Assembly: GCF_003334765.1 (NCBI RefSeq)
Contig: NZ_QOWT01000093.1
Reading direction: 5' to 3' (one strand)
DNA from: Escherichia coli
GTDB lineage: Bacteria > Pseudomonadota > Gammaproteobacteria > Enterobacterales > Enterobacteriaceae
DNA: 951 nucleotides
A model generated the notes under the pieces. That model saw only the letters and a program-made list of their open reading frames with translations, was not told the origin of the DNA and did not search any database. Each line of letters opens with the position of its first letter. Position 1 is the stretch's first letter. Below, one piece after another: positions 1 through 951 of the stretch. The position numbers and the translations under genes were made by a program.

Positions 1-222
1 CCCCTGCAGCGGGTCATAATAGCGGTGGCGGTTGTAATACAGGCCGGACTCCTCATCATACTGCTGCCCCGGCAGGCGGATAAGCTGCTGCAGCTGATGC
101 GGGTTCTCTTCATTCAGCAGGTTGCCCCATTCATCGTATTCTGCGCACCATTCTGTTGCCCCTTCCGTGCTGATAAGCGCCAGCGGCAGGCCGCGATGGT
201 CGCAGTGGTACAGGTGGATTTT
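1..222 (-). other. RHS repeat-associated core domain (C-terminal end of the Rhs core, immediately before the expected autoproteolytic DPxGL junction)
   Basis: The translation [74 protein letters not shown] has the characteristic shape Y-x-x-D-H-x-G-x-P ... W ... Y-D-x-W-G ... Y-D-x-E-x-G-L-Y-Y-N-R-x-R-Y-Y-D-P-x-x-G-R of the conserved Rhs C-terminal core domain. The domain is cut by the window edge. Confidence 0.75.
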
Positions 223-951
223 TCGCGCCGGCGTGTACACCGGGTCCATCTGGTTTTGCATCTGCTCCACGGTCAGGCCGCACGATGCCAGCCAGCGGCG
301 GCTTTCCTCACTCACCCGGTCAGCCAGGATTTCACTTTCCAGCCGGTCGAGCATCTGCACCAGCACCGGCGGGAACACCACACTGCCACCGTCTTCGCCG
401 CCGGACTGCTGAAGCGCATCCGCCAGGCTGCGGCGCTGCGTTTTCGCCAGCTCACCGGTGGCGGTTTCAACTCTGATGAGTGGCGTGAAGCTCCCCGGCT
501 GATAAATCGTCTGGATGCGGGTTCTGTCGTTCTGTATTGTGGTCAGCCGGTCGCCGTCCCAGCCGTACCAGGTCACTTGCGGTTTCCGTGACAGCGACAT
601 CCAGCCCGTCAGGTCCCGTTCACGCCGCCACACCCGTTTTGCCACCCTGCGGCCCAGCGGGTCGTAAAGATAGCGACTTTCGACCAGCGGCTCTTCATAT
701 TGTGTCCGCGTGTAGTGCACCAGCCGGTGCTGACTGTCGTAATGGTACCGGTGAGTCCGCTCATCATCCGTGCGGATAACCCCTTCCGGGATGAGGTCGG
801 TTTTCTCTGTCAGCCTGCCGTGACGGTCATACCGGTAAAGATAGTGCGCGTCACGGGCGATACGGTTATCCGGCCACATGCTGAGGGTGCTGTCCGGGTG
901 CAGCTCCGGGTCGGGCAGGCGGTTACCTGCCGGGTCTGTGGCATACGGGAT
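1..951 (-). CDS. Rhs family protein, conserved core region (YD-repeat polymorphic toxin, RhsA/B/C-like); partial at both ends, internal fragment
   Basis: Reverse-complement translation in the frame whose codons end at position 1 gives 317 codons without a stop. The product contains YD-repeat motifs ([48 protein letters not shown]) and the Rhs signature [35 protein letters not shown]...[22 protein letters not shown], which I recognise from enterobacterial Rhs cores. GC-rich codon usage fits Rhs cores. No start or stop codon lies in the window, so the true gene ends are outside it. Confidence 0.93.
538..843 (-). other. Block of YD (RHS) repeat motifs within the Rhs core (protein-level repeats, beta-shell region)
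   Basis: Four spaced motifs of the form aromatic-x-Y-D-x-x-G/H-R-L on the minus-strand translation: [12 protein letters not shown] (808..843), [12 protein letters not shown] (718..753), [12 protein letters not shown] (640..675), [12 protein letters not shown] (538..573). This matches the YD-repeat consensus GxxxRYxYDxxGRL. Confidence 0.75.

Follow-up and report, generated by a model that had tools for sequence, protein, structure and literature searches.

The stretch of Escherichia coli DNA analyzed here (951 nt, referred to as the window) runs antisense to an Rhs polymorphic-toxin gene of E. coli (RhsA-B-C-F subfamily) and covers part of the conserved core of that gene. Its GC content is 61.7% (587 of 951 nt), and this composition is very probably a relic of a foreign, GC-rich history of the Rhs core. 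The original prediction of a GC-rich core was correct, and its interpretation was the standard one and survived the tests reported below; both have been known since the 1990s.

Identity, extent and copies of the gene

In a six-frame scan, minus strand frame 0 of the window contained no stop codons across all 317 codons, whereas the other frames contained 1 to 18 stops. The translation was recognized as an Rhs core protein by the NCBIfam RHS_core profile NF041261 (E = 6.9e-206, 686.7 bits, profile positions 913-1229 of 1261); the curated cut-off of this profile, 2000 bits, applies to the full-length protein and is out of reach for a 317-aa fragment. YD repeats of the form YDxxGRL[I/T] were found as well, with a TIGR01643 YD_repeat match at E = 1.8e-7 and two motifs visible in the translation, and the Pfam RHS_repeat matches were weak (E = 0.07 and 0.8). 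The Rhs-associated core domain TIGR03696 was matched at aa 272-316 (E = 2e-9) and Pfam PF03527 (RHS protein) at aa 245-281 (E = 5e-15). At near-identical loci (99.7-99.8% nucleotide identity), where the full genes are annotated RhsA or RhsB, the window spans codons 899-1215 of a gene of 1377-1411 codons. The paired DPxGL motifs of these genes lie at aa 1221 and 1243. The translation of the window ends at aa 1215 with ...RYYDPLQG, five codons short of the first motif (DPIGL), and the DPxGL pair falls outside the window. The earlier assignment to an Rhs core was thus borne out by the profile match (7e-206 when rounded) and by the identity to E. coli rhsA and rhsB. The features of the window and its immediate surroundings are as follows.

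1..951, minus strand: internal segment of an RhsA/B-type Rhs core open reading frame (open frame, RHS_core match, nucleotide identity to rhsA/rhsB)
within 1..951, minus strand: final YD-repeat strands of the beta-shell, together with the beginning of the C-terminal plug, or aspartyl-protease, region (GC 61.7%, GC3 74.8%)
229..459, minus strand: charged segment of about 77 aa (...MDPVYTP), aa 165-241, 65.8% GC, the richest part of the window
109..219, minus strand: PF03527 conserved region, the hyperconserved core end (Pfam match; aligns to the C-terminal region of 8cp6, 7q97 and 8uxt)
1..138, minus strand: start of the TIGR03696 domain (profile match, aa 272-316)
18-96 nt beyond window position 1, minus strand: DPxGL autoproteolysis motif pair and core/tip junction (from near-identical loci)
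25..591, plus strand: 188-codon antisense open reading frame, an artefact of codon register

The distribution of the window was studied by megablast against 5426 complete E. coli genomes. It was found in 3889 of them, the median genome carrying it at five places; 3875 genomes covered 80% of the window or more, and 1109 E. coli records matched at 99% identity or more. The window was also found in E. albertii. No 100% match was found among the 5426 genomes, the best matches being rhsB of strain STK39-3-E (99.8%) and K-12 rhsA (99.7%). Among the other K-12 paralogues, nucleotide identity was 98.7% for rhsB, 98.6% for the ybfO orphan fragment, 97.6% for rhsC and 78% for rhsD and rhsE. The window differed from rhsB of STK39-3-E by two substitutions (plus-strand coordinates 130 and 157) and from K-12 rhsA by three (159, 167 and 178). 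All differences from both best matches were therefore confined to a 49-nt patch, window positions 130-178, in which the paralogues also differ from each other. Judging from these alignments, the patch resembles a mosaic left by gene conversion among rhs copies, a typical pattern for mosaic paralogues.

Partial copies of the core end were also observed downstream of K-12 rhsA (L002:10248-10631; 385 nt, 95% identical to window positions 1-385) and of K-12 rhsD (L005:12986-13135; 150 nt, 83%). Both are annotated as Rhs core pseudogenes with other tips behind them, that is, they are known orphan (displaced) tip cassettes. An Rfam scan of the window yielded no family at its gathering score and hence no match to a non-coding RNA. 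Chi sites, sought on both strands of the window as a possible link to the name "rearrangement hot spot", were not found.

The long stop-free antisense frames had been attributed to the high GC content. The three plus-strand frames of the window contained 1, 16 and 9 stops. Fewer stops are indeed expected at the composition of the window (8.5 per 317 codons vs 14.9 at 50% GC), and this part of the explanation stood; however, only 0.13% of shuffled frames contained one stop or none (P = 0.0013), and bulk GC was rejected as the cause. The longest open run, 196 codons, corresponded to the 95th percentile of the shuffles. The nearly open plus-strand frame is in codon register with the sense frame. 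In this register antisense stops arise only from the sense codons TTA, CTA and TCA, which occurred 0, 0 and 1 times, respectively, among 50 Leu and Ser codons, and therefore the frame remained nearly open. It may be concluded that the open antisense frame was produced by the preference for G/C-ending codons (GC3) in a fixed register rather than by bulk GC. A search of NCBIfam with the plus-strand open reading frame 25-591 gave no match, and this frame, being an artefact of register, was rejected as a real gene. For annotation, the window should be labeled as the antisense of an Rhs core, and the 188-codon plus-strand frame should not be called a gene.

Base composition of the window and its surroundings

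By eye, the window had been estimated at about 60% GC from hand counts of two 60-nt stretches. The computed value was 61.7%, and both counts were exact (56.7% for positions 1-60 and 66.7% for positions 241-300). On the coding (minus) strand, GC1, GC2 and GC3 were 66.9, 43.5 and 74.8%, respectively. The genome average of E. coli K-12 is 50.8%, and against this flat value the window gave a binomial z of 6.7.

A local baseline was built from 71 kb of K-12 DNA around five rhs loci. The 1241 sliding windows of 951 nt in this DNA had a mean GC content of 52.7% (sd 4.5%) and a maximum of 61.5%; none reached 61.7%, and the z value of the window was about 2. The 57 complete K-12 genes flanking these loci also averaged 52.7% (sd 4.7%), the richest being nikC at 60.9%. 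Their GC3 was 58% (sd 7.5%; 58-60% in the flanks) compared with 74.8% in the window (z = 2.25). The window thus stands at the top of the local GC distribution, about 2 sd out, but not far outside the local range. The description of its composition as atypical for an enteric chromosome held in the sense that the window lay above all the K-12 rhs-flank windows, though only by about 2 sd.

It was also observed that the native nik operon nikABCDER (L003:2668-7990), located directly upstream of K-12 rhsB, has a GC content of 57-61%, with nikC reaching a GC3 of 75%. Because this operon is nearly as GC-rich as the core, GC alone would not separate the core from its upstream neighbor at rhsB and is unsuitable for flagging foreign DNA there.

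The contrast between the GC-rich core and the AT-rich tip of E. coli Rhs elements was reportedly described by Feulner et al. in 1990, within a series of descriptions extending to 1998. In the four intact rhs genes of K-12, the core had a GC content of 61.3-63.3% and a GC3 of 71.5-75.4%, while the tip had a GC content of 36.5-41.3% and a GC3 of 18-31%. The DNA surrounding rhs genes at the near-identical and K-12 loci was 51-52% GC. The expectation that C-terminal tips would be of lower GC was accordingly confirmed at the near-identical loci (core 61-63%, tip 37-41%, flanks 51-52%). The AT-rich tips of K-12 are followed by yhhH, yibA, ybfB or ybbC; these are genes of related loci, not the window's own downstream DNA. 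Jackson et al. 2009 (PMC2935791), citing Wang et al. 1998, likewise describe a G+C-rich core and an A+T-rich core extension in rhs genes, and Jurenas et al. 2021 (PMC8636562) state that GC content and codon bias are not the same in the toxin domains as in the shell. In this literature, the contrast between GC-rich core and AT-rich tip serves to delimit cores and orphan tips (PMC2935791, PMC8636562).

The position of the compositional break was determined by a two-segment maximum-likelihood fit to GC in five rhs genes. In all five, the change point preceded the end of the second DPxGL motif by 48-58 nt (log-likelihood ratio 63-92), which places it between the two motifs. From the edge of the window to the end of the second motif the distance is 96 nt; therefore, the break is situated about 40-50 nt outside window position 1 and is invisible within the window. 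No compositional step was found inside the window when 100-nt windows were used, all of them within 1..951 being between 57% and 69% GC. The predicted break at the core/tip junction thus exists as a sharp change point in related loci, but it lies outside the window, beyond its edge.

The change point does not coincide with the last conserved codon but is located within the conserved core end. This position is consistent with tip cassettes that each carry a copy of the last core codons and recombine in the hyperconserved region.

Origin of the high GC content

The composition could be a demand of the protein itself, the YD-repeat shell requiring Gly, Arg, Pro, Asp and Thr with their GC-rich codons whatever the host. 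The amino acid composition does lean this way: compared with the flanking genes, the core contained more Gly (9.1% vs 7.1%), Arg (9.8% vs 5.8%) and Pro (5.6% vs 4.8%) and was also enriched in Asp, Thr and Tyr. However, codon positions 1 and 2 supplied only 35% of the GC excess over the 57 flanking genes, and the remaining 65% came from position 3, where GC3 was 74.8% vs 58-60%. Arginine was encoded by CGG in 30% of cases in the core vs 11% in the flanks and by AGG in 7% vs 1%. Measured against the 71 kb of flanking DNA as the host baseline, the core therefore showed, in GC3 and in CGG and AGG usage, the deviation at synonymous sites by which horizontally acquired DNA is recognized. Relatives from other species were compared at the seven loci confirmed among the candidates listed, only two of which are distant relatives. 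A homologue from a Clostridia metagenome-assembled genome (24% identity, E = 2e-9) had a GC content of only 31.8% and a GC3 of 21.7% and lay in a contig of 30% GC; the Serratia silvae relative had 56% GC with flanks of 55-59%. Since both of these relatives match the GC of their own flanks, the protein does not force a GC content of 62%. Amino acid composition as the main cause was rejected on the position-3 share and the low-GC homologue, and a protein-driven origin of the high GC is considered quite improbable. Closer to Escherichia, the cores of E. albertii (61-65% GC) and Pseudocitrobacter (60%) were as rich, with AT-rich troughs of 30-42% directly downstream, as in Escherichia.

The window would be unremarkable in composition if it came from a non-enteric genome of about 60% GC, and the best match of 99.8% among complete E. 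coli genomes leaves some room for such a source. This is hardly credible given the 1109 E. coli records at 99% or more and the 3875 genomes covering at least 80% of the window. Among the non-Escherichia matches listed, protein identity did not exceed 76%, apart from one 463-nt contig. This contig, NZ_JAHZMO010000170.1 (0.79x coverage), belongs to an assembly of Terrisporobacter petrolearius (Firmicutes) and encodes a peptide 92% identical to the window protein; it is almost certainly a contaminant from Escherichia.

Alternatively, E. coli could be keeping the GC content of the cores high by an active process, for example gene conversion biased toward GC among the approximately five paralogous cores per genome, or selection at the DNA or mRNA level. 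Jackson et al. 2009 (PMC2935791) report a core of Serratia marcescens at 67.7% GC and describe rhs as ancient in the Enterobacteriaceae, with most lineages older than the family; such a long enteric residence would otherwise have allowed amelioration. The genome of S. marcescens has a GC content of about 59%, below that of its core. The cores are moreover multi-copy (a median of five places per genome), and the clustering of differences at plus-strand coordinates 130-178 points to paralogue mosaicism. If maintenance were true, it would reconcile the ancient enteric residence of rhs with its unameliorated composition. However, the Serratia silvae and Clostridia relatives are at the GC of their own flanks, and the substitutions run in the opposite direction. 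When changes within the A-B-C-F subfamily were polarised by RhsD/E-type outgroups, 27 were GC→AT, 7 were AT→GC and 7 were GC↔GC, the reverse of what GC-biased fixation predicts. The GC→AT excess is conservative, since errors of parsimony in a sequence this rich in GC would add to the AT→GC class. It argues against active maintenance more than it argues for a foreign origin because bacterial mutation is AT-biased and a similar excess is expected in native E. coli genes. Overall, active maintenance is regarded as unlikely, though less so than the two preceding explanations.

Third codon positions were further compared between the RhsA-type window and RhsD. Positions identical in the two sequences were 89% GC, and positions that differed were 55-60% GC in each sequence. 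At 102 of the 134 differing positions, one sequence had G or C and the other A or T; both had A or T at only 5. The simplest reading of this pattern is that the GC3 of the ancestor would have been at least as high as today's and that each subfamily would then have decayed independently. Wang, Zhao and Hill are said to have proposed in 1998 that the rhs subfamilies diverged in a GC-rich background and then moved, independently of each other, into one with less GC.

A foreign, GC-rich history is very probably the explanation of the composition of the core. Under this explanation, the core would have evolved in a genome with far more GC than that of E. coli; after its arrival in the Escherichia lineage it would have multiplied, the median now being five copies per genome. 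It would now be decaying slowly toward the composition of the host, and the 62% GC, mainly the 75% GC3, would be a historical signature. The toxin tips and the immunity genes downstream of the core would be separate AT-rich cassettes swapped by recombination inside the hyperconserved core end, and this swapping would generate the sharp compositional step. Both the existence of a GC-rich donor and the transfer direction are inferred from these comparisons. The view of high GC as a sign of horizontal acquisition was upheld by the excess of GC3, the CGG and AGG usage, the host-tracking relatives, the 27 changes vs 7 and the 89% GC at conserved third positions.

Some points count against a foreign relic. 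The excess is only about 2 sd over local genes, and the native nik operon is 57-61% GC. There is also some tension with the ancient enteric residence, which sits uneasily with an unameliorated GC3 of 75%.

Comparison with known Rhs systems

The closest known system is the core of K-12 RhsA and RhsB, which belongs to the RhsA-B-C-F subfamily of Hill and co-workers and to clade I of Jackson et al. 2009. The K-12 rhsA and rhsB genes share with the window the same reading frame and the same position relative to DPxGL, and their GC content (61.6-61.7%) and GC3 (72%) are close to those of the window. K-12 is not known to have a type VI secretion system (T6SS) by which its Rhs copies could be delivered.

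The RhsD/RhsE core subfamily resembles the window in having the same architecture, a protein identity of 80-81% and an equally high GC content (63-64%). It differs in that nucleotide identity is only 78% and third-position differences are mostly G/C in one sequence vs A/T in the other.

Jurenas et al. 2021 (PMC8636562) describe the shell as a closed beta-barrel of YD repeats around the variable C-terminal toxin, with a plug that is an aspartyl protease; the toxin is released by the action of the catalytic Asp, which lies in the second DPxGL motif. The solved T6SS Rhs effectors are Tse5 of P. aeruginosa (8cp6), Rhs of S. bongori (8qjc/8qjd), Rhs1 of P. laumondii (7q97) and Tse15 of A. baumannii (8uxt). 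The window aligns to these effectors by sequence in the last YD-repeat strands (aa 17-165) and in the plug, or aspartyl-protease, region (aa 241-316), with E values of 4e-25 to 5e-12. The phmmer matches break off near aa 165 and start again near aa 241, so that in these alignments the solved effectors have no counterpart to about 77 residues of the window; opposite this segment, S. bongori Rhs has only 4 residues and Tse5 about 30. The segment is the charged one at 229..459 and is conserved in the RhsA-C as well as the RhsD/E subfamily. On the basis of these alignments, it may be an insert specific to this lineage, located in the wall of the shell or in the plug.
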